Below are positions 9,594-42,188 of a DNA stretch of 64,000 bases, in pieces. The number at the start of each line of letters is the position of its first letter. The stretch's first letter is position 1. The position numbers were made by a program, and so were the translations under genes. Location: the NCBI GenBank assembly GCA_036172245.1, contig JAYWIR010000011.1:930001-994000 (forward strand). The letters are read 5' to 3'. Source of the DNA: Raillietiella orientalis (lineage: Eukaryota). Under the pieces are notes generated by a model, which ran no database searches, was not told where the DNA came from, and saw only the letters and a list, made by a program, of their open reading frames with translations.

Positions 9594-10658
9594 GACGCTC
9601 ATCCAAGAGAAGTACACAAACAGCTAGGGAACGGCGTTCCCTAGCTGCTTATTACACGAGAAAAAGACGGATTCCAAGGACAGGGCCCGCCGACATGTAG
9701 GTCGGCGGCTCCCAGAGTCCGGAACGCGTGGGAGGGGACAGAAAAACAATCAAGGGCAAGGTGGGAACAGGGCTCAGCCGTTCCTTCCTTGAAGAACCGG
9801 CGCAGGACGACGGTCATCGCCGCCTCGACTCCTTGTTTCCGGTAAGGCAACCGTCCTCATCACGAATGCGGCTGCCGTAGCGGCTCGAGCACGTGGAGGG
9901 CGCCCGGCGATAGTGCGCGTACAGCATCCCGTCGCGGTCACGGCGCCTGCGCAAACGATCGGCCCGCGGCCAGTTCTTGCGCACCGTTCGCGGAGAGCTG
10001 CTCAGTGCAAATGGGAACGATTCCATCGTCCCGCAACCCCGGGAACAAATCGGCGATGCCAGTCGTGCGGAAACGAGTAGCCAAAGCTGATTGTACGGGA
10101 ACAGCAGCGCGCCCCGTTTGGACGCCGAAGCGTCCAAAGAAGGGCCCACTCTTTCCTCGGGAACGACGCCGAAAACGTTTCCCTCCCACCGAGGAGGAAG
10201 CCCCCCGGCCGGACGATGGGTCGCTTGCCAGCCCGTGCGCCTTGCGGCCGGCGAGGAGTTTGGTGTCTCCTGCATGGGTGCGCGAGATTCTCCCACCGTC
10301 CGCCGGTGGGCCGGTGCTACTGTCGTCATTGACCCTTCGCGAAGGCAGCGCCGCGGTCAGGGTTGCGGCGGCCAGGTGCAACCACCTCGCCTTGTCCTGT
10401 AGGGCATCTCCGACCGGGTTGCGTTCACAGAAGACGGGGTGTGGCAAGGGGAGTCGGCGGTTGACAAGGCAGCGGCGACGGCTGCGCTCGGTGGCGCCGC
10501 TTTCGGCGCGGCGGCGCCGAAGAAATTCGCCTCACGCGCGGCACGAGCGTGTCGGACGTGGGTGGACGTCGTCGTCCGTGAGGACTCTTTGCCTGTTCGA
10601 CGGGAAGGACCGCAGTTTGGCCGCCTCGGGGTTGCTTGGAGAGGCGCGGGTGCAGGCG
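9594..10658. repeat. 1.07-kb duplicated segment, copy 1
   Basis: Matches 16352-17416 (offset 6758). Only three substitutions seen (9671, 9674, 9707); the ORF-track translations are identical. Confidence 0.97.
9800..10060 (-). mobile_element. Possible decayed N-terminal zinc-finger region of a Utopia/NeSL-like element (also at 16558-16818)
   Basis: DLFPG..ICTEQ followed by KNW..A..LRR...DG...HYR...TC...GSRIRD..CL resembles an LFP-C..C-W-SLxRH-H..C..C..H.C pattern with the His/Cys residues mutated. Confidence 0.3.
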
Positions 10659-12267
10659 AGGCTTCACGCACCGGCGGTGGCGCCGGCCGGATGTGCGGCA
10701 TCAGAAGGACACGTCGTCGTCGATCGAGGCGCCAGGCAGCAGCAAAGTGACGCCGACCGAAATGCACGAGCAGCTGCCTTGACCCGGACGAAGAGGGTCA
10801 CGCAGACACATCGGCATTTGGTGTCCTCCGGCCATCCTACTGGGGGTAGCCGAATCGGAATCTGCAACTCGGGAACGTAGGGAAGGTAAGCGCACCGGTC
10901 GTCACTTGTCCTCGGATTGGTTCACCTGCGGCGATGCAAGAGGTTGGAGTTTTGCCTTCTGGAGCCGTTGCTGAAGGAGGACGAGCACTCGACTCGTCCT
11001 GCAAAGGAGCGGACTCCCGCATGGGTGAGGACTTTTGTCGCTTTTTGCCTGGGACCACTTCGTCTTGCTCTGCAGTACGCAGCTCGAGGAGTTCGGGAGA
11101 CCCGTGATGGCGAACGGCACGTCTTTCAAGGATACGCCTGCATCTACGGTGTCCTCGAGGAATGGCTGTTCTCAGAATGCACCACTGCGCTTTATCGCAG
11201 CCATGCGAGTGCAACGCTGGGTAAAGCACGTGTTCAGATGATGAAAAAAAAATCCCGAGAAGGAATTCTAAAAAGAAAAATTGGCGAGACGCTTGGATTC
11301 GCTCCATGGTTTACTCTGCGTTTAGCTTTTGATGATTCCACTGAAAGGAGCTCGCGTGGATTATTGGGCACAGAACTACAGCTCACCATGAACGAAATGG
11401 GAATCCGAATCCCCATAGAATCCTGAAGGGCTCTTACGTTGAAATCGGCGAAAGATTAATTTTAGATCCGTATTGGTGATTTATAGCATGCGAACGGCTA
11501 ACGTATGCCGAACTGAAAGAGTCCCTCTAGGGGCTGTACTTTCCTGAAATTTGAACTATCCGGGAATAGCAACGGTGGCTGTGAATGCGCTGATCCTTTC
11601 ACTTTTGATGTCTTCGAAGCACAGCCATGACTGCAAAACAGCGATACGGTTATGGGAGTTATGAAGACTTCAAAGGGAGCTGTCGATGGCCGACGCGATC
11701 TTCCAAAATCAATGCAATTCAACACGGACAACGATGGAAGCGACCTGCGCACGCAGAGACCAACACCTTCAGTGTGTGATTAAGATAGAATGATAATAAT
11801 AAGGACATCCCCGAAGCCCGGATTTCATTTTAAAGGATGCAGCCCCGCGGAAAACGAACATTCACACCGAGCGCCAAGGGCTGTTAACCTTCGGGATTAA
11901 CAGCAGGCACAGAGGAAACATTCAGCACGTGATCAAACGACGGACTCCCGGCCTTTTCGACTGCATCAGTGACTTCAGAGATTTGTAACTGAGAGCCTGG
12001 AGTCCCAGGATATGCGTCTCCCACTTGCTACTAACTCGAAGTTTAGGGGAGGAAATTCTGGATGCCACTGATCGTGGAGAATCCGCAAACGAGGTGGTCA
12101 CAAGCGGTTTCTATTGACTTCCTATAAATCCGTGATTCCTTCCTGGTGACCACGAAAGATAGTGAAAAGTTCCTAGAAACCAGTTGCGAGATTTTTTTTT
12201 TAGAGGGAGGGGGGATCACAGCCGAGCTGAAAAACTTTTGAAGCAATCGGAAGATTATTAATTTTTG

Positions 12268-16351: not shown

Positions 16352-17416
16352 GACGCTCATCCAAGAGAAGTACACAAACAGCTAGGGAACGGCGTTCCCT
16401 AGCTGCTTATTACACGAGAAAAAGACGGGTTTCAAGGACAGGGCCCGCCGACATGTAGGTCGGCAGCTCCCAGAGTCCGGAACGCGTGGGAGGGGACAGA
16501 AAAACAATCAAGGGCAAGGTGGGAACAGGGCTCAGCCGTTCCTTCCTTGAAGAACCGGCGCAGGACGACGGTCATCGCCGCCTCGACTCCTTGTTTCCGG
16601 TAAGGCAACCGTCCTCATCACGAATGCGGCTGCCGTAGCGGCTCGAGCACGTGGAGGGCGCCCGGCGATAGTGCGCGTACAGCATCCCGTCGCGGTCACG
16701 GCGCCTGCGCAAACGATCGGCCCGCGGCCAGTTCTTGCGCACCGTTCGCGGAGAGCTGCTCAGTGCAAATGGGAACGATTCCATCGTCCCGCAACCCCGG
16801 GAACAAATCGGCGATGCCAGTCGTGCGGAAACGAGTAGCCAAAGCTGATTGTACGGGAACAGCAGCGCGCCCCGTTTGGACGCCGAAGCGTCCAAAGAAG
16901 GGCCCACTCTTTCCTCGGGAACGACGCCGAAAACGTTTCCCTCCCACCGAGGAGGAAGCCCCCCGGCCGGACGATGGGTCGCTTGCCAGCCCGTGCGCCT
17001 TGCGGCCGGCGAGGAGTTTGGTGTCTCCTGCATGGGTGCGCGAGATTCTCCCACCGTCCGCCGGTGGGCCGGTGCTACTGTCGTCATTGACCCTTCGCGA
17101 AGGCAGCGCCGCGGTCAGGGTTGCGGCGGCCAGGTGCAACCACCTCGCCTTGTCCTGTAGGGCATCTCCGACCGGGTTGCGTTCACAGAAGACGGGGTGT
17201 GGCAAGGGGAGTCGGCGGTTGACAAGGCAGCGGCGACGGCTGCGCTCGGTGGCGCCGCTTTCGGCGCGGCGGCGCCGAAGAAATTCGCCTCACGCGCGGC
17301 ACGAGCGTGTCGGACGTGGGTGGACGTCGTCGTCCGTGAGGACTCTTTGCCTGTTCGACGGGAAGGACCGCAGTTTGGCCGCCTCGGGGTTGCTTGGAGA
17401 GGCGCGGGTGCAGGCG
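16352..17416. repeat. 1.07-kb duplicated segment, copy 2
   Basis: Direct copy of 9594-10658 with a sharp right breakpoint after GGGTGCAGGCG. Confidence 0.97.
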
Positions 17417-19369
17417 TCGGTACCTTCACCTACAGCGCTGGAAGTCTTCCGCAATAGCGCTGGAAGAAACAAGGAAAAAGCCTTGCCTTCTCCAGCGCTG
17501 TTGTCCTCCGAATCAGTGAAGACTTTCATCGCAGTTTGGCTGGGACCTTGGGATCGGACGAGCTGAGAAGCACTGGGAGAACTGAGGGGATCCCGAGGAG
17601 GAGAGCGATGCTCACGGGGAAGGGAACGGTGCGTGGAAATGCCCCGTATTCCCAGGCTGGCTGGCGGGAAGCGCCGCATGTCCGTCGAGGACTGCGTCCT
17701 CGTCGTGAAGACGAATTGGAGGAAGCTGCTCGACCCTGCCGCGAGGCTGGCGACAGTCTCCTGTCTTCGCCTGCTCACATCTCCCTATTTAGCGGAAGCG
17801 TAGGCACGGAATGGGAACAACATCCATGGAGTGTGTCGCCAACTCTGAACATCGCAGATGAGATCAGGCCTTTCGACATTTTTAGGCGTTAAACGATGTT
17901 TGTTTCGGTTGCCGAACGTGTTGTCGGTGTTGAAAGTGAAAAATCTGAGTTGTACAAAATTGGCTGCACTCTCTTCGTGGCTTGAAGCAGCCGTTTTCGC
18001 AACGGACCAAGACGCACCTGTGCTCACCACCAGGCTTAACGTGGGCGCTTCATCGCAGCTTTCCAACCAAATGCTTGGCCTAACGACCAGCAATTCACCG
18101 ATTTTTCCGTTTTGAGGACTCGGTTCTTGCTTCACCCCTCGATTAGTGCTGGGAGGTTGTCAGGTTCTTTCGGATTTCCCCCATTTGTGCGTCTTGAAAT
18201 TCGTACGTGTTCACCTTGCGTTTCTTCCCTGCATCCGGATGCTAATTAATTCAGTTGTTGCTCAGATGAAGATATATGGGAATGTACTTCTGGAAACGCT
18301 TTCCGATGCACTTCCTAGAGTCAAATGAACTCTTCCGAGAGGGCCGACACGTGTGCTCACGTTCGGGGTAGATGAGCGAAAAGGGGAGGCGAATTCGTTA
18401 AGCGAAAGCACGTGCATATCCTCCGCGTTGTCGACGAAGCGGTGCAATCATTCCAGCTTCCTCCCTTACCTACCAGCCATCGGGAAAAGCAAAATTCTCA
18501 TGATTTATTGCCCACGTAATTCATCAGCTTTCCATAACAACTGCATTTTGTGATAAATGCGCTACCATCTTTGCTGTGTGACGAGGATTATTAACTGTGA
18601 TCATTGCTGGCTGCGTTCAGTGTTCACATCAACCAGTGTTTCGAAGGTGCTGTTCCCTGTAATCTCAGAATGGATGGCTTTGCTACTGCTGCTGCTGCTG
18701 CTCCGAACTGAGATTCTGGGGCGACTGGAACCTGCACGACCTTGCTGCTTCAGAGTGAAGGCGACAGTGGCCACTTTTTGCTGAACACGCAAAAAGTGGA
18801 AAGCAGCAGTCATTCATTGCAACGGGAGGTGGAGTTTTCCAGAGGAAGCAAGGAAGGGTTCCATCCCGGAAGAGTGCCCGAGAGCTTTCGGGTGACGATA
18901 AGCTGTTTCTATTCTATACGCGTGGCGAATCTTCATGCGCGGTAGGTTTTGAGAGGCGCAGCGAGCTACACGGACCACAGGGCGATTGAGCCAAAGGGCA
19001 ACTGCAAGCCAGTTTGCTAGAACGGGAGGAAGGAGCTGCTGTGAGAGAAGGAGTTGCGGAACTCCTTCAAGACTTCTTGACGCGCGACGCTCTGATTCAA
19101 CGGTGCCTGGTGGTGCAGAACAAACCACCACTTTCAGAATCGGAAGTCGCCTTTCCCGGGAATAGCATCGAAAATTGTTCTTTTTATGATGGGCAGATGT
19201 TCAGACACAGCTGGCAGTATCGGGGAGCTTCCTGACTGAGGTCCTAGCAACCACCAACGAGCTACCCTTCAGAACTAAGGGGTCCATTCTCGGATATTCT
19301 CTGCGCCAAACTCACTACAGAAAAAGAAGGGACGATGAATCTGAGCGATTGCACCGGCCTTCCGCCCAG

Positions 19370-21009: not shown

Positions 21010-21860
21010 GAACTTCCACGTCACTACTAGCGCAGGCGGAAGTCGCCACCGTCGGCGATCATGCAACAAGACAGCACGGCGGCCTGTCCCGCGGCGTAGA
21101 CGCGGTTGCGGGGCTCCAGGGAGACGACCACCGGAGGAGGGAAGGGACCAAAGTCCCCGCGCCGGTCGATGAAGATGTCCAAGAAGACCCGCGCCTGCAT
21201 GGCGCACTGGGACTAAATGCAACACACATGTAGTAGCCGCCGTCTCCCTTGGGTCCACTGCGGACGGTCAGCGAACCAGGCGAGTCCACGGCGAAGCGTC
21301 CGGGGGGCTGCTCGGGCTGCGGCACTGAGAACGCTCCCTCTTTCGACCAGAAGGGAAGCGACGCGAAGTGGCCGTCGACGGTGCAGGAGAAGGAACGTGT
21401 CGCCGTTGATGCGGACGCGCTGAGACGTCGGTCGGACGAAGAAGGAAGGCAGCACGACGAGCCTGGCCAAGACTGACCGCGTGACCCAAGTGGTTGCGCG
21501 CCTCTCACACGTACGCGCCTTCGCCCTCGACCGCCTCCACATCCTGCATCGACCGGATGAAGAACAGCTTCACGTGAGCGTTGAGGACCGCCACCGAAGT
21601 CCCCCTGCTGCCAGTCGAATTTCGCCAGACACTCGTAGAGACCCTCGTCGGCCTTGGTCACTCCGGAGATCAGCAAGCTGTTGCAGTTCACCGAGCGCAA
21701 CCTGGGGTCGACCTCCAGGTCCAGGGTCTGGCTGTACCGCATCCACCGCACCTTCGGCTCGGGAAACTCGCGAAGGGCGCGCACGCCAATATGGTGTCCT
21801 CGCTCTGGAGGAAGTGCATTTTCTCCAGGACGCTCCGGAAGCCACTCCAGCTGGTTGATC
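21010..21860 (-). pseudogene. robo: Roundabout-like Ig2-Ig5 pseudogene fragment
   Basis: FPEPKVRW...SLLISGVTKADEGLYECLA (Ig2); PSFFVRPTSQRVRING...SFSC..G...FWSKEG...GRFAVDSPGSLTV...DGGYYMCVAFS (Robo Ig4-like); PPPVVVSLEPRN...AVLSC (Ig5 start). Several frameshifts and a stop. Confidence 0.75.
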
Positions 21861-23049
21861 GCGGGACTGCGTTTTACCGCCAGTGCTTCTTCCGGTGCTT
21901 CGTCCTGGGAGTCGCAGTGGCTCCCTTCCCCAGAGCCGTTTTCTGTGGCCGGCGAGGAGGAAGGCGAAGAGAGAGCACCCCTCCCCCTCCTTGAGAGACC
22001 ACCACCGCCAATAAAGAGGGAGGAGGTTCAGGAGGTAGGAATCACGCTCCATCCTTTTCGGACCCTCGAAAAAGAAAAAAATCTTTCTCTCGAGCTCTGC
22101 GAACTCGGAAAGAAAGAAGACTAAAGAGAGATGGACGGTGAGGAAGACTTTGGAGGACTGCGGAGTCATCCAGGTGGAATGTAGAAAATCAGCAAAATTT
22201 CTTCTGGGGGTAAAGCGTTACCTCGTGACAAATACCCACCAGTGAAATCCATCTTTTTATTCTTTTTTTCTCATCCTGGGCAAAGATAACATCCCATTAC
22301 TTGACTGCTTACCGGGTTAGGGAAACTGGAAATACCTTTCTAGGATTTCGGGAAGTTTGGCGTGAAGATCTCATCAGAGGATGCCTCTTCGGATACGCGG
22401 AGTTCATTTGATGAATGGGGAATCACATCGCTTCCCGATTAAGGACTTTTCAGAGCAGCGTAAGGGGGGAACGAAGCAGCACGTCATTACCCCGGTAGAC
22501 CTCGCCGCGAGGCTGGGGGTCATCGTCATTAACTGGAGGACGACGCTCGCCTTTCCGGAGAGGCTGAGCGTCGCGCGTTGCAAACGCTCAGCCTTTCCTC
22601 CATCCTCCGTCCCGGAAGCTCCTTTTCCGAGACGACCCCCCTCTGCCCCCGGCTCTTCTGCGCATTCGGAGACGAGGAACCCTCTCCTGCGAGCGCATCT
22701 CCACTCCCTCGGTTGGAACCCAGACTCAAGGTCGGCTCCACGATCATCGGCGAGATGATTCGGGATGTAAGCCGCCTGCCTACGAGAGCCGACGGAAAAT
22801 TCGGTGAGCTGGAAACGACGACTATGGATGCGAAAGGCACTTCTGCTGCCTGCACGGGATACTTTTCTGGAAAGTTCGAACCGCACCCGCTGGACCGGAA
22901 GAAGCATCAGAGCTGGCAAGGAACGCGCGTGCGAATGAGGAGCAAGCCTCCAGGAGCGGAGGGAGCTCGCGTTGAGGCTGGTTCCCTCAGATGAGCCGCC
23001 AATGGAGAACAGGTTCCCGGCTTCGGAGATGAGGAATGCTCGCACGTGT

Positions 23050-35270: not shown

Positions 35271-37390
35271 TCTAAGGAAACCCAGCTACCATCCAGTCCA
35301 ACTCGCGAGCGGCTTTGGGCATTCGCTTGATGGTCCTTATCGGAAGATGGATGTTATTAGGGACGCTTAATTTAGGTCGCGACGCCGATCGGAGCGCAGA
35401 AGTCTCACTGAGTGATTATCCAAGAGAATGTTAAGAGTGCCACGAATCGGAAATCTCACTGATGTCTCCACTTTGTAAACGAAGGAAAAATCTAGCTATC
35501 AGAGCCCCCTTTGAAGAAGGACTGTTTTCTGATCTCATATTGAGTTCCGGAATCGCGAAGCGGGAAGCAGGAGAGGACGCAGAGATCGCTGAGATTTCGA
35601 TGATTCGATTTGTGAAGAGAGATTCTCTTCCCCCCCTCCCCCCTTTCTCCCTCCCCCTTTCATGTTGTGCATCCCAGCACCCGAGTTTCCTTTGAGATCG
35701 CCATGCAAGCGGTCTTCCAGAAATGCGAGTTCCTTAGACACGGCTCAACAATTTTTGCCTTCTTTTTCTTATCTTTTCTTTTCCGGGATGAATTTTGGAT
35801 GAGAAATCAATAAATCCCTGTTGGAACCGTCAGCTGCATGATTTTGATTTGATTCGGAAAAATCCGTCGTGAATAATAAAAGCAGAGATGGGGAAAAAAT
35901 GGAATTTTCAGCGTCTCTTCTTCGAACAACAGCCGTTCCTTGTGGGAGGTCTTTTGTACCAGCTCCAACCTGGGACTCATCGCCGAGGTAAATAGCTCCG
36001 TCCTCTCTCTCCATCTCCTTTCTTCCCTCACTTCGCGCTCCGTGCGCCAGACGGAGGAATTTTGCAAGGGGCTGGCGGACCCACAAGGAACTCCCCGCTC
36101 GGCACAAGGAGCGGACAAAAGGGGAAGGGGAACCCTGAAAAAAGGAGGGCTCGCCCCTTGCAGGCAGCAAGCGCCCAGTGAGCAATGGCAAGGCGAAACG
36201 GCCGCGAACGAAAGGTCCACTTCGAAGGGAGCGACGACCGGAGCCCAGTAGGCGTCTCTTCACGGCTGCGGTCGATTCCGATTCCGGATGCTCGCTGACT
36301 CCGGGCTGAGGGTCCACGCCTTCTTCTCGGCTTGGCTGCAGGCCCTACTGAGCAAGCTGAGGAAGTGTCCGAGTATCACGAAAAAACTGCGGTTCAAGAG
36401 GAGGTGATGCTCCTTATAGCCGTGGAGCTTCGGACCCCTGAGATGCGCGGGAGAAAGAGCAGAGTGGAGAATTCTTCAAGTGGGCGAGGTCCATCTGCTT
36501 GGGAGCACTCTGAAGCTGGAGGCGTTGCATCCATGCCTGCTGCATCGACGAGGCTCATCGTGCTAAGTGGCGCCCGAAGGGACGGCACGTGTCGCGAAAC
36601 CCTGCACTCCGCGTTCTAGCAGCCAGTCCCCTGAAGAATCAGTCGTCCAGAATCCACGAGTCTCGTTTCCTTGAATTTTTTTTTCGGCGATCTGGATAGC
36701 GCGAGGGCGAGGAGAACCTGCTCCCGAAGCACTCCCTTCACCAAGATGGGAGACCTCGGCTTGCCCACGGATGCACCTTTGTTTATCGTGGTTCACCTCG
36801 AATTTCCATCAGGGATGCATGCTCTTTTCTCCTGAAGTTTGGAGTGGGGCAAGCAGCAAGTGGGAGATCACGCTCCGGCTCTTCTGGGGCTGTTCGCGAA
36901 GGAATCTTCTGGTCGTCATGGAGATGCCACTTTCCCACCAATAATCCAGTCCCAACGAGGCGCGAAGGCATGCAACCTGGAAAAAAGCGTCCTTGTGCTC
37001 GTCGGATGTAAAAGACATCATCATCTCGTGAAAAGGAGGGGATTTATCTTGCAACCATCTTTTTCAAATGTGCGCCGGTTGCTGAATGCACACCGCATGA
37101 GAAGGCGTGTCGCCAGCCTTTAGGATAGCAGAGCGGCTGCAACCCTACCGCATTACTTTTTTTTTGCTTTTCCATTTTTCATTCCTTCCCGAGTGCCTTG
37201 AAGCATTGATCGGGAAGTGGAGGCGCTGAAACCAAGGAGCATATTCATGACCATCAGTGATCCCATGCATGTCATTCGAATACGCGTTTTTGAATCGACA
37301 CGCGTACATTTCCTATGGGCCGGAGCATTCCTCACGTCTCCTGTGCCTTCCCTCGCAAGAAAGCGGGGCAGGATGCTTCAGTGCTCCTGG

Positions 37391-37472
37391 CATTCCCGCT
37401 TTGGAAGCAGCTGTCATTCCCGCTTTGGAAGCAGAAAAGATGGCCGATCATCTTTGATCGGCCATCTTTTCT
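37391..37472. repeat. 20-nt tandem duplication abutting an 18-bp perfect hairpin
   Basis: CATTCCCGCTTTGGAAGCAG twice (period 24), then AGAAAAGATGGCCGATCA-TCTT-TGATCGGCCATCTTTTCT. Confidence 0.92.
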
Positions 37473-38451
37473 TCTTGCTGCCCCATCGTTCCCGAGGATT
37501 ACGGTGATGGCATCCGGGTTTCAGACGTCATGGCGACGAGTTCGGTCGATGGAGCACCACATGGAAGGAACGGAGGTCAGAATCTCCCTTTCCGGAGCGA
37601 CTGACCCCTTAGCTTTAGGAGCTGCGTGGTTTTCTGAAAAGCGGCCTCGGTCGGACCGATGAGAAACGAATCCAGCAAACGGAGCAGCGGATTCCTCTGA
37701 CGTGACGCATCCATCGTTTGCTGGTGCGCTGAGATTGTGGGAACCCTGGCCACAGAAGGCGGAGACTCGGGCGACGACGGTGTACTGCGAAGTCTTGTGT
37801 TTCGCGCAGACATTTCGTCCGGAAACCACCGATCTCTGAGCCGCTCAGAAGAGCTTCCTCATTGACCGTCTCTTGCGCAGAACTTACAGTTGCCTTGTAC
37901 AGAGAGCGGGAATGTACAGGATTACACTGCTTTCTGTTTTTTTTCTTTTCTTTTACAAGTCAGCCGAGTACCTGAGCTCTCCGAATAAGCGTCCTGCCAC
38001 CTCAGAGGGTTTCCTCAAAGAGAGGGGAAAAGAAGTTGCGGCAGAGAGAAGGGTGCTGTTTCGCTAAAAAAGCGCGGTCTTCCGTTGCACCGACCCCACG
38101 AGCCAGACCTGGAGCGGGCAAGGAGAAAGCAAGTTGCCCCGCGCGAGGTAGCACGAGGAATTTGGTGTCGGTAACTTTTTCGCTTGCAAAAGATCACAAA
38201 AAGCGACATCACGACTCCCACGGAGCAGTCGTTGGAACCAATAGGGATGCTTCTGAAAGCGCCTTTTTTCAGGAAAATTCTAAGTCTTCTCGCTTGCATC
38301 AAATCTATTGAAACGTCGGTGTGACAATACGGTAAATAGAAATGCACTCAAAGAGACCAAGACGCCTAGATCAGGGCTTCACTGAACGGGACAGAGCACA
38401 ACAGGATGCAGCAGAATGCCTTGCATTCTGTTGGCATGAAGGAGGTACAAG

Positions 38452-38483
38452 ATCTCTTCTCGGCCTTTTAACTGAGATTAAAG
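38452..38483 (+). ncRNA. U2 snRNA 5'-end fragment (nt 1-32-like)
   Basis: ATCTCTTCTCGGCCTTTTAACTGAGATTAAAG versus remembered U2 ATCGCTTCTCGGCCTTTTGGCTAAGATCAAAG: 27/32 by eye, starting at U2 nt 1. Confidence 0.75.
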
Positions 38484-38484
38484 G

Positions 38485-39086
38485 GATTTGTCGAATTCGT
38501 GTTCATCCATGCCGCATGATTGAATTTGCTTCCGATTCGGGGCGTGTCAGGGTGACCCCTAGCAGAAAAATCATGCCGACGTTGTGTGGTTAGAGATGAG
38601 ACCCTGTCTCATATTTTCAACCACTGCAGGAGGCATTCTATACTATGCACAGCTAGGCACGACGCCGTCCTCGGAAGGCTATCGGAAGCTGCGAAGGATA
38701 CTGCAGGATGGAAGTTGATGTCGGCCAACAAGACTGTGCCTGGGTCCGATTCCAGCCAAAGACCGGATCTGGTGCTGCAGAAGACAAATGGGATGATTAT
38801 CCTCGAAGTCTGCTGTCCCTTCGAAAAGAAGGAAGATGTATGCAGAATCGCAAGATTGGAGAAGGAGACAAAGTATCAAGAGATCACCTTGCCGTTTACG
38901 AGAAAAGGCTCGAACCCATGCGTTTATCGTAGGTGCAGTGAGATCGTGGGGCCCTCGGAACGATGGGGTCATCCGAGAGTTGGGTATCCCAAGCCGGTGT
39001 GCGAATACAATGAGAACTCGATGGTGGTATCGTGTATCAAGCACAGTAGGGGCATCCACTGGGTGCATCCTCAGATGACGCCATGA
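38485..39086 (+). mobile_element. 5'-truncated Utopia/NeSL-like retrotransposon: CCHC knuckle plus RLE domain
   Basis: FIHAA*LNLLPI..CRRC..ETLSHIFNHC..ARHDAVL..RPDLVL..LEVCCPFE..ARLEKETKY, then frameshift to FIVGAVRSW..ND..LGI..SRGI. Confidence 0.9.
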
Positions 39087-39236
39087 ATCTGCAGCTTGAA
39101 AAAGTATCAGAAGAAGAGTCTCTCTTCTAGTTCGTGAAGAGTGAACGTTCTTTTAGTCCAAGGAAGAGAGATACGGCAGAGCCATCCAATCTTTATTTCA
39201 TTACATATTTGGTAATATCTTAATGAAATTATATAA

Positions 39237-39695
39237 GTTAATTTAGTGCTACAAAAAGGCAACTGCCTAGTCATCTTGGATGCTGCCTCTCCATTCGAAA
39301 ATGGCGAACCAGCATTCACCAAAACCAGATAGGAAAAGAGAAAAAAATAGCAAGAAACAACCCAGCGGCTAGCAAGAAGGGGATGCTTATCTAAAGTAGA
39401 AGCCATCATTGTAGACTCTCAATGGTTCCCGTGACCCATCAAATGAGGGAGTCCTACGACAACTTGAAATACCAAAACGGCATGCCTCGAGTACCCGCTG
39501 CAGTTGCGACATATACTGGACGCATCGACTGGGACATCTACCAGAAGACAAAGATATAATCAAGAGCGGAAAAGAGGAATAGATGACCCATTCCTGGAAG
39601 AATAATACGATCCTCACATGTATCCCAGCCCCTCAACGAAAGATGCTGGACAGCCCCCTTCCCCATTCCTGTGTTGTGACTACTTTAATAAAAAA
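39237..39695 (+). mobile_element. Second RLE 3' end with 3' UTR ending AATAAAAAA
   Basis: VNLVLQKGNCLVILDAASPFENGEPAF..R*EK..K, then GSRDPSNEGVLRQLEIP..DIYWTH. AATAAAAAA at 39687-39695. Confidence 0.8.
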
Positions 39696-40124
39696 TCTGT
39701 TTAGCTGACGCTGCACCTGTGGTGGAGGACAGAAAGGAAGCAGAGCGGAGTTCACCACCATGAGCGGATGACCAAGTTCTTCGTGGAGGAGGAGCAGTAA
39801 ACTCGTATTCACCCGTAAACTAAGTGATCACGAAGATATCAGCACGTGGTAACAGACCTTCCCAGTGTTCCTCGTGACTCCCTTCAAAAGTATTCTTTTC
39901 CTCAAACAGCCCCACCGAGACGAGAGGTCTCCCAGGAAATAGCCCTTTCATTCCGGAAATGGAGTCACTGCCCTCGCAACCCCATGGTGCGGACCGATGC
40001 CATACGCCGGTCCACGTCGGCGGCCTTTCATCACTTGCCGTACTCTCAACTGAATGCCATCTACTCGCACCTCGGCTGCGTCCATATTCCTCCTTGGCCG
40101 ATGAACCAGAGCAATATACAGCAG

Positions 40125-40400
40125 AAGGAATAATTCTAGCATCATCATCTTGGACTTCTTCCGTCCACTTGAAAAATGAAGACGCGTTCAGGGTGATCCC
40201 TGGAGGCAAGAAATGAAACTATGAAGGAGATATTATAAGACAACTGGAGTGTCGAGGAGCACACATGAAGATTCAGGCGTTTGTAGTTGGTTGCCTGGAT
40301 TCCTGGGATGTGAAGGATGATGCGCTCCTGACAGATTTCGGATGCCCTTCGACTGGCACGAGGAGAAGGTGAGGCACCTAGTGCTAGCCTGAAACATCCT
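40125..40400 (+). mobile_element. Third RLE domain relic
   Basis: IIILDFFRPLE / NEDAFRV..KK*NY..QAFVVGCLDSWDVKDDALL. Confidence 0.75.
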
Positions 40401-40659
40401 CCACAGTAGAGACGTTCACTGAGCAAGGCGTCTGAATTCAGGAGTTGAGAAATCCTGGACGCGCAGCTGCAGGATGCTCAAGGCGAAGAACAAGGCAATC
40501 GCCATGGAGTGGAGGCATTGAAAGACGATCCTTTCATTCTTCACCACAAGAGTACCTTCGATGGTGAGGAGGCTTTGCAAATTACGCCACATCTATAGGG
40601 AAGAGAGGGGAACAGTGGAGAATCACCCCCTCCTTCTTTCTCATCATTTGTTGCACCTA

Positions 40660-40870
40660 CAGTCCAGCTTACTTTGCATGCAGAGAGATGCGAATAAAAA
40701 CATTTGAGAGTCCCTTGGTCTCTTGCACTCGCCCTCGTGCACGTGACGCCTGAGCATTCCCAGATTTCTGGTAGCATGGGGGTTCCTCTCATTTCCCAGT
40801 GGCGAATTGTACGGACTCTCCGTCGCTCCTCAGGGTTAGACAGCCATCACCATCCCTTCGATGGAGAAGG
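40660..40870 (+). mobile_element. Possible RLE-element linker fragment
   Basis: HLRVPWSL...ISQWRIVRTLRR...H resembles the LxVxW...R..TLR linker. Confidence 0.3.
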
Positions 40871-42188
40871 AGGGCCGAAAACGACATCGCTGAGAAGAGC
40901 AAAAAGATCCAGGAGATTCGAGGCGCACTTCCAGAACATTGCAGCGAGAGAGCGGCGGAACCGAAAATAGGTGACCTTTCACTCAGAGCTCAGCTTCACT
41001 CACACCGGCTCCCCGTCTAGGATGACGGACTCCCCGCCGAGGAGGAAGTGAGAGCGTAGTCCCTGATCGGTGAGGTGGACGACCAGAAGCCCAAATGGCC
41101 TCCACCTCTAAACGTCTGGGAGGTCAGCGCTGCTGGAACGCCAAAAATGCAGTTTTCGCATTCCTGAGCACTCTCCAGCGCGTCGAGCAGAGCTCGCGCC
41201 GTAGGATAAACCCGGCCTTAGTTCACGAGCAGCCTAACACTCAACCGCATACCGAGAGAGCTGTTGTCGGGGTCTTCACGGACACTAGTGACTGCGGGAA
41301 TCGGAATCCTCCAGGAGGTCGCCAGGAGGATCATTCAGGAGGTCATCTGCTTTGGAGGACCAGCCAGCGGCTGGTCCTCCAAAGCAGCCGGAACTGGGAG
41401 ACGGACGGCAACCAAGAACGCAGAGTTCGCGCCCTATCTCCTTCCCTCCTCTTCCCACCTCCGGAGCACGGCAGGTTCCTGCGTGTGAGAGGAAGGTGCC
41501 GCAGCGGGGGAGCGCGCGGGAAGGGTTCCGGGAGAGGCGCTCCTGGAGCCGCTGCCGATGGTACAGATCTTTTTTTTGGACGGGGGGGGGAGGGGTTGGC
41601 CAAGTGTTGAAGAACTGTTCGTCTCCTCGAGAAATTGGGGGAAGACACTCTTTGACACTGTCCACGCCACCCGAAGGTGAGTGCTGACTCTTCAAGCTGG
41701 GGGAGACCCCAGGGGGATCACCTTGTGAATCCGGGAAGGGAAGAGAGGGAGGACCCCACAGAGAGGACCCCTCCTCGTTACTTTTCCGAGGGGAACCCGG
41801 AAGGGATCCTTTCCTGGAATTTATTCTCCGAAGGGGACCGCTTCTCGTTTCCTCCTCTGAAGGGCACTCCTCGAAGGGAACAGAGCACTTCTTGACGTTC
41901 TGGAGAGGCATCAACCGGCTCCATGGTACTCGAAGAGGGGTTCCCCCTGGAAGAGAAGGGACCGCTCCATTTCCGCAACTGGGAGGGAGGTGGGGAATCA
42001 CGAAGGCAACCGGCACCTTGGTTTCTGAAAGGACCCCGGAAGGTTGACTCCCGATCCTTTCGACCAGTCCACGGGGACATCTGGCTTTCACCCTTGACGC
42101 ATCGAGAGCTTACGGGCCAACCAGCATAATCCCGCGAGGAAAACTCGAAACCCCCCGACGCGCCCCCCGTTCTTGGCGTTGCTGCTTC

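Follow-up and report, generated by a model that had tools for sequence, protein, structure and literature searches.

Among described retrotransposons, the closest to the locus reported here is Utopia, of the NeSL clade (Kojima and Jurka, 2015; PMC4640811). Features in the available part of that description that recur here include a CCHC plus restriction-like endonuclease end, a 3′ junction at U2 TCTGTTC, tandem insertion like that in Nasonia, and a weak specificity with off-target copies like that in reptiles. In its crocodilian S4 Fig, a U2-like 5′ piece precedes a truncated Utopia in 3 of 29 entries, one of which shows the alligator empty site with the piece. The U2-headed arrangement is already in print in that figure, where the accessible text leaves it unremarked, and insertion next to a U2 piece that was there before is shown in it as well. 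Off-target heads, U2 3′ read-through and transcription from the U2 promoter are not discussed in the part of the paper available, which leaves open both the mode of Utopia transcription and the element's survival on few U2 genes. The present family differs further in that heads are frequent (11/47) and one sister clade is free of U2. A literature search for U2-headed off-target Utopia copies or for Utopia co-transcription found none, with most subscription journals and Repbase Reports outside its coverage.

Three other systems bear on the locus, each as described in the accessible portions of the papers cited. Tailless snRNA retropseudogenes (Kojima, 2010, PMC2912911; Noll et al., 2015, PMC5322556) share with our material free U2 5′ pieces with target duplications and short overlaps and a large excess of U2 over U6, but they are described as L1-dependent in therians and lizards, whereas here, in a probable arthropod, the pieces are joined to an element with a restriction-like endonuclease (RLE). 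SINEU (Kojima, 2015, PMC4494074) likewise places a U2-derived head on a retroposed body without an internal promoter; it differs in that masters of fixed structure amplify, while here each head-body junction is distinct and no amplification has been shown. R2, with its co-transcription with 28S rRNA, its SIDEs and its jump to U12 (PMC2718515, PMC3414825, PMC13580325), is also an RLE element that depends on a host-gene transcript, and its variable 5′ junctions show small deletions, repeats and microhomology. In R2, however, a 5′ ribozyme trims the co-transcript and the element stays in the rDNA, whereas in the present family the U2 5′ end remains entire and copies are scattered over the genome.

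The locus lies in a window of 64,000 nucleotides (G000:C11:930001-994000), by which we mean the whole stretch of DNA that was analysed. A unit of about 1,250 nt (38452-39701) consists of a U2 head, two successive truncated copies and six U2 bases (Table 1); the element borders were set by a DNA profile built from 60 copies. Against a U2 reference taken from the genome's own loci, positions 38452-38483 agree with U2 nt 1-32 in 27 of 32 bases, and the next-best ungapped match on either strand of the window reaches 19/32. The sequence-only reading, which had placed a 32-nt segment beginning at U2 nt 1 directly against a truncated CCHC and RLE element, was therefore right about this junction. Its proposed check with the Rfam U2 model came back empty: in 36500-41000 there was no match at E<=1, neither to U2 nor to rRNA; a decayed 34-nt piece of U2 is below the reach of Rfam. 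The head is 5′-complete and ends at nt 34.

Table 1. Features of the headed unit and its flanks in the window, and the four promoter-bearing U2 5′ halves found in the assembly
Feature	Position	Strand	Evidence or arrangement
Upstream flank, neither U2 promoter nor element	38352..38451	+	promoter-proximal score 12
U2 snRNA nt 1-34 (head), decayed	38452..38485	+	27/32 identity over nt 1-32
Element 1, 5′-truncated Utopia copy, from RFADxRFIHAARLN motif through endonuclease to 3′ UTR	38486..39233	+	profile match 38486-39238, E 1e-151
CCHC zinc knuckle, C-x2-C-x8-H-x4-C	38574..38627	+	translation; knuckle columns invariant in alignment with arthropod homologues
Restriction-like endonuclease core, RPD...E...PFE...K..KY	38760..38876	+	translation; R2-type match via close relative
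Element 2, shorter 5′-truncated copy of another subfamily, in tandem behind element 1	39241..39695	+	profile match E 1e-44; tblastn
TCTGTT = U2 nt 40-45, the family's normal 3′ junction (or a U2-like target)	39696..39701	+	sequence; same junction in own copies and metagenome relatives
Third, older endonuclease fragment	40138..40502	+	profile match E 3e-12
Promoter-bearing U2 5′ half, L238	after U2 nt 33		truncated copy, further pieces in tandem behind
Promoter-bearing U2 5′ half, in L093	after U2 nt 36		125-nt element tip, then U2 nt 40-46
Promoter-bearing U2 5′ half, L102	after U2 nt 37 plus 11-nt repeat		truncated copy, then rest of U2
Promoter-bearing U2 5′ half, L304	after U2 nt 38		apparent element 5′ end

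Element 1 is truly 5′-truncated at the head, since neither an upstream-region profile nor a whole-body profile detected element sequence 5′ of the U2 piece. A U2 piece dropped into a longer element, as one tblastn alignment running past the head had suggested, was rejected because both DNA profiles are empty there. Four longer relatives share 78% identity with element 1 over 366 nt, and the element's 3′ UTR resembles that of relatives ending in U2 nt 40 and beyond. The open reading frame 38556-39086, which encodes the CCHC knuckle and an RPD...E...K..KY endonuclease core, has two in-frame stops just 5′ of it and a frameshift near 38905. Pfam returned zf-RVT alone for the window peptide (E 0.059). 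In a close relative, the region that holds the endonuclease core can be aligned with the C-terminal part of R2 (PDB 9nl2, E 2e-10). Element 2 terminates in AATAAAAAA, followed by TCTGTT. Apart from these six bases no remainder of U2 was found downstream of the window element, so that the earlier statement to this effect needs only this exception. The extent first given fell short: the element does not end at 39086 but reaches about 39233, in the 3′ UTR, and both the second copy from 39241 and the third fragment were missed. No target duplication was detected around the unit (P 0.41), and a 25-nt candidate prompted by an upstream TCTGTT was dropped at that value. Nothing in the copy points to a function, and we regard it as a dead fossil.

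To place this unit in its family, the assembly (210 Mb, 491 contigs) was searched with the endonuclease peptide, which gave at least 1038 first-look candidates genome-wide, of which 150 were scored. Ninety copies, from peptide candidates and DNA matches, were examined; the sample is not random, as selection leaned to higher identity, and a count of 5640 candidates from a U2 family search was a rough first look that is not used as a copy number. The 90 copies fall into U2-linked subfamilies (52 rows including the window), a fully supported clade of 34 rows and a distant group of four. U2 sequence from nt 40 follows the copy in 14/52 U2-linked rows, against 0/34 in the sister clade (p 0.0006) and 0/4 in the distant group, and relatives close to the window element (L016, L021, L148) have this 3′ junction. 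Because this U2 has one extra A, its position 40 corresponds to nt 39 of the human U2 numbering used by Kojima and Jurka. The exact 3′ junction pattern has 13 matches in the genome, and the same U2 junction appears at 15 of 62 metagenome loci, in 13 of them behind a matched copy; a same-strand U2 head was seen in 0/62 of these metagenome relatives, most of which are on short contigs.

The best named homologues come from spiders, ticks and insects, so that the genome is probably that of an arthropod; Acyrthosiphon pisum and Ladona fulva, two species listed as Utopia hosts in the part of PMC4640811 available, are among the species with a homologous protein. Longer relatives in the genome have one open reading frame with N-terminal zinc fingers, a central reverse transcriptase and no apurinic endonuclease. 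In a C-terminal tree without outgroups, the genome's own copies form one radiation (support 100) among arthropod homologues with U2 junctions. Target and domain order together indicate that the family is in all probability Utopia. Keno, of the Tx1 clade, uses the same U2 site but would have an apurinic-type endonuclease, whereas the one here is C-terminal and restriction-like. R2 would be expected at a 28S site, and 36500-41000 has no rRNA match while the family's junctions are with U2. These domains and junctions, along with the absent promoter described below, bear out the earlier view of a Utopia-type element lying outside a U2 gene.

Two groups stand apart from the U2-linked copies. The 34-row sister clade (L072, L073, L076, L082, L103, L152 and others) is nested in the radiation and has lost all association with U2; it has near-identical copies, and target duplications of 25-29 nt in 3/24 clear cases. 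The distant RLE family (L099, L100, L106 and L107, on G000:C81, C26, C40 and C19) has long open frames of up to 1249 aa, and a U2 flank was found in 0/4 of its copies.

Heads like that of the window recur. A U2 5′ piece sits at the truncation point in 12/48 U2-linked copies, or 11/47 without the window, against 0/32 in the sister clade (p 0.002) and 0/4 in the distant group; six copies were excluded from the count because their 5′ ends lie beyond the retrieved DNA. The family is dispersed genome-wide and still tied to U2, as the sequence-only reading had supposed, and other copies do carry the U2 5′ sequence that it looked for. Head scores range from 29 to 66, with 21 as the highest value on the reverse strand, and in none of the 90 copies did a piece of U6 or U1 reach threshold. 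The heads end at nt 28-37, and the head-element junctions lie 72 to 2067 nt upstream of the ORF anchor. The joins show overlaps of only 1-2 nt, with short repeats of U2 nt 25-37 at several of them. Four further copies (L223, L236, L146 and L097) have a U2 5′ piece at, or at most 0.6 kb before, the last element homology and were left uncounted, their gaps being matched weakly at best, and L224 was set aside as a full-length headed copy because a common SINE-like repeat after its head makes it equivocal.

The decay of the heads correlates with element branch length (rho 0.78, p 0.004, n=11), which fits joint insertion and fits insertion beside a young fragment as well. Individual copies give further detail. 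L095 has, by eye, a 10-nt duplication running from the exact element 3′ end and ending at the head. L143 has a duplication of 9 nt, the sole one scoring at least 9 among six headed copies that carry a U2 extension. L094 lies within a repeat, and the empty paralogous site of this repeat holds no U2, just a 2-nt overlap. Three copies of two subfamilies (the window at 38486, L094 and L111) have truncation points no more than about 6 nt apart, immediately upstream of the RFADxRFIHAARLN motif. A single master for the three was rejected because they are not sisters and are 59-78% identical. More generally, a SINEU-like family with a fixed head-body junction was rejected: the junctions differ, the three near-coincident copies are not sisters, and no sibling of a gene-resident truncated junction was seen, all within 90 of at least 1038 candidates.

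The true U2 genes of this genome offer the standard against which these heads can be judged. A pattern search found no intact U2 gene in the assembly and just two places spanning the site, both without a 5′ end; intact genes may have been collapsed in assembly. CpG-rich DNA that reaches U2 nt 1 without a gap is common to two loci over about 750 nt, and both can on that ground be regarded as real genes. A genome search with the shared upstream DNA gave four promoter-bearing U2 5′ halves, and 4/4 are interrupted, three of them by 5′-truncated copies (Table 1). Measured over the promoter-proximal 100 nt, the scores are 148-160 for true genes, 12 for the window and on average 16 for random DNA, so the snRNA promoter that the sequence-only reading had proposed looking for upstream is absent; scores of 10-22 were obtained for a further 17 dispersed loci that have a U2 5′ piece. 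No upstream DNA common to a true gene and dispersed headed copies was found in 15 of the latter. With neither the promoter region nor the remainder of U2 present, the window is not a functional U2 gene. A promoter test against a U1 copy was uninformative, since that copy may be a pseudogene. Two of the promoter-bearing 5′ halves, L238 and L093, lie in opposite orientation in a U2 cluster near a contig end (G000:C30:2,714,000-2,728,500), and both are filled with Utopia pieces of different subfamilies.

We favour the reading, to which we give about an even chance, that the unit at 38452-39701 is a dead retrocopy of a chimeric RNA made from a U2 promoter, in a gene carrying two stacked truncated insertions. 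At other loci Utopia inserts in real U2 genes between nt 39 and 40 in this genome's numbering, often 5′-truncated and sometimes stacked, and such insertions leave U2 nt 1 to 33-38 upstream. Transcription from the external U2 promoter would then begin at nt 1, cross the insert and continue into the remainder of U2 and its 3′ flank. Judging from the junctions, the Utopia protein would take this RNA by the element 3′ UTR and prime at a loosely U2-like site elsewhere, with reverse transcription probably starting at or within the U2 3′ extension. Copying to the RNA 5′ end would yield a U2 head, and stopping short would yield a headless truncated copy. The dispersed copy would be promoterless and dead on arrival and would decay, as is seen in those observed. 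The templates that this account requires exist, since all four promoter-bearing U2 5′ halves are interrupted, three by truncated copies; transcription through the inserts and the copying of truncated templates are the steps we infer.

Several copies suggest that U2 sequence travels on RNA. The leader of L304, which follows U2 in a promoter-bearing gene, has one other genomic copy, L305. This copy is promoterless and starts with a perfect U2 nt 1-37, followed by the junction of L304, the leader and two zinc-finger regions, running into the reverse transcriptase. A second dispersed and promoterless copy that appears 5′-complete, L204+L241, also starts with U2 nt 1-37, its 5′ end being known from a single copy. 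On the 3′ side, the U2 sequence of headless copies runs from nt 40 to a variable end, anywhere from nt 48 to past the mature end, and in 3/34 headless copies a duplication of 12-15 nt begins within the U2 extension or right behind it (null 0.7%). Nineteen headless copies reach the mature U2 end or go beyond it, and most of these share 40-270 nt of downstream sequence from just inside that end. No shared upstream DNA and no duplication above the null were found among the 19, which look like truncated copies of a read-through RNA and not like gene duplicates. On-target truncated and stacked insertions, promoterless headed copies and the carry-over of U2 3′ sequence are all present in this genome. 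At six loci (L007, L008, L009, L166, L167 and L176), the shared 3′ flank includes U2 nt 40-129 as an older copy in inverted orientation, some 100 nt beyond the 3′ end of U2; it was present in 6/22 examined, scoring 69-107 against 16-22 for forward controls.

The main gap in the co-transcript reading is the lack of siblings: among truncated headed copies, no two are siblings. One truncated junction resident in a gene found itself alone when searched genome-wide, and comparison of three such junctions with the retrieved loci gave no copy with the same junction. Of the two mechanisms that the sequence-only reading had put forward, this one is nevertheless the better supported, and several routes can coexist in one genome. 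A stronger version, which we regard as tentative, is that Utopia has no promoter of its own and is transcribed as one RNA comprising U2 nt 1-38, the element, the rest of U2 and the gene flank, with the U2 genes serving as a nursery in a SINEU-like manner. Each truncated insertion in a U2 gene would in that event be a new U2-headed non-autonomous template to be scattered genome-wide. If the dispersed copies are fossils of co-transcripts, they record both the RNA start at U2 nt 1 and its read-through end, provide a concrete route to snRNA-headed SINEs, and show the off-target cargo of an RLE retrotransposon, a matter of relevance to gene insertion with such proteins.

The leader of L304 invites a further suggestion. 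Its first 70 nt behind nt 38 are nearly identical in L304 (328-400) and L305 (478-550), both on the reverse strand (G000:C482, C57), which are 77-80% identical overall. It has parts resembling an HDV ribozyme, namely the hairpin ACG-UGCCUCGA-CGU, GCUAA and a closing helix, the first helix not being kept in L305. An HDV-like ribozyme behind nt 40 of L304 was rejected as a finding and is a lead only, as the descriptor is post hoc (shuffle rate 0.7-1.3%), has no Rfam support and meets a broken first helix in L305. A ribozyme-like leader at this place may release capped U2 5′ pieces and so feed the pool of free fragments. One such 'free' fragment, L187 (G000:C5:2108099), is followed by GGAGTAGG, which matches the start of the L304 leader at 45/48 nt, and L187 may be a short retrocopy of a co-transcript.

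Free U2 5′ fragments are in fact common. A 23-letter U2 5′ pattern has 183 exact matches in the genome, against 0 for the reversed control, and the genome's own U6 variant has 17 (a first U6 pattern gave 0); in human the corresponding figures for U2 and U6 are 666 and 143 in file S1 of PMC5322556. Among 50 of the 183 that were examined, 47 are free (three of them near-identical paralogues), two consist of a head, an element tip and U2 nt 40-59 or so, and one is L204. The pieces end at nt 27-38 with a mode at 34, like the heads, and 19/50 have a duplication, against 3% for the null; the free ones are tailless retropseudogenes. Two loci, L050 (G000:C3:1470486) and L141, have a U6 5′ fragment directly behind the U2 piece, and L031 (G000:C1:5547544) has a short inverted U2 nt 25-36 before its U2 5′ fragment, an arrangement that resembles twin priming.

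This abundance opens a route that the sequence-only reading, confined to two, had missed. A tailless retropseudogene of U2 nt 1-34 may have been there before, and Utopia may have taken this half target and inserted just behind it twice, element 2 first and then element 1 between the head and element 2. We think this possible but less probable than the copying of a co-transcript. It has a published precedent in the S4 Fig of PMC4640811, where one 5′-truncated Utopia in crocodile and gharial stands behind a U2 piece that is present in the alligator empty site, and the end points and duplications of the free fragments agree with it. It also accounts for heads of U2 only and for their restriction to the U2-linked subfamilies. 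Direct tandems, found in 3/14 headed against 0-1/34 headless copies (post hoc, p 0.02 with 0), fit the reuse of a head as target, and they equally fit arrays that were built in a gene and then copied whole. A fragment ending at nt 34, however, does not contain the core of the cut site (nt 35-46), and headed copies whose U2 extension reaches nt 51-122 would presuppose longer retrocopies, all of them struck, whereas the site-spanning pattern is found in just the two places lacking a 5′ end. Insertion beside an old fragment also leaves unaccounted for the headless copies with U2 3′ sequence and gene flank, and the empty site of L094 holds no U2. Were this route nonetheless the true one, the upstream half of the target would suffice to attract the element.

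Template switching, the other mechanism first proposed, is the weaker of that pair, since only U2-linked subfamilies have heads and none of these heads is of U1 or U6, and we consider it improbable. The reverse transcriptase would have switched near nt 34 to a U2 RNA, which may have been the snRNA itself, a 5′ cleavage product or the head of the element's own co-transcript, and would have copied this to the cap. For R2, an in vivo jump to U12 snRNA that left a repeat of 6 nt at the join is described in the available part of PMC3414825. The short repeats at several joins here are similar and are compatible with a jump, since the R2-U12 case has one too; every truncated junction observed is unique, with the slight overlaps noted above. 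Against a jump stand the absence of U6 and U1 heads and the absence of any heads in the active sister clade, though the lack of U6 is by itself weak evidence because U2 pieces are about 10 times commoner (183 vs 17). True U2 genes, in which the join forms on DNA, moreover show the same repeats and end points, and R2 forms such junctions on target DNA (PMC2718515, in the portion available). The tandem of the window would, in addition, require a second event.

That the unit is the remnant of a true U2 gene disrupted by Utopia, with promoter and 3′ half lost, or a chance neighbourhood, is very improbable and largely refuted: the layout is that of an on-target product and the copy is old (5 changes in 32 nt), but true genes have about 750 nt of CpG-rich upstream DNA where the window is at background, 15 dispersed headed copies also lack the upstream DNA of a true gene, and the chance background of U2 5′ pieces, 2 in 552,642 strand-bases besides that of the window (one being a true gene), is far below 11/47 junctions.

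Elsewhere in the window, the same reading frames occur twice, at about 9814-10750 and 16572-17500, in a near-identical duplicated segment of about 1 kb whose copies lie 6758 bases apart. A reading frame on the minus strand at 21059-22027 contains putative immunoglobulin-domain-like stretches.
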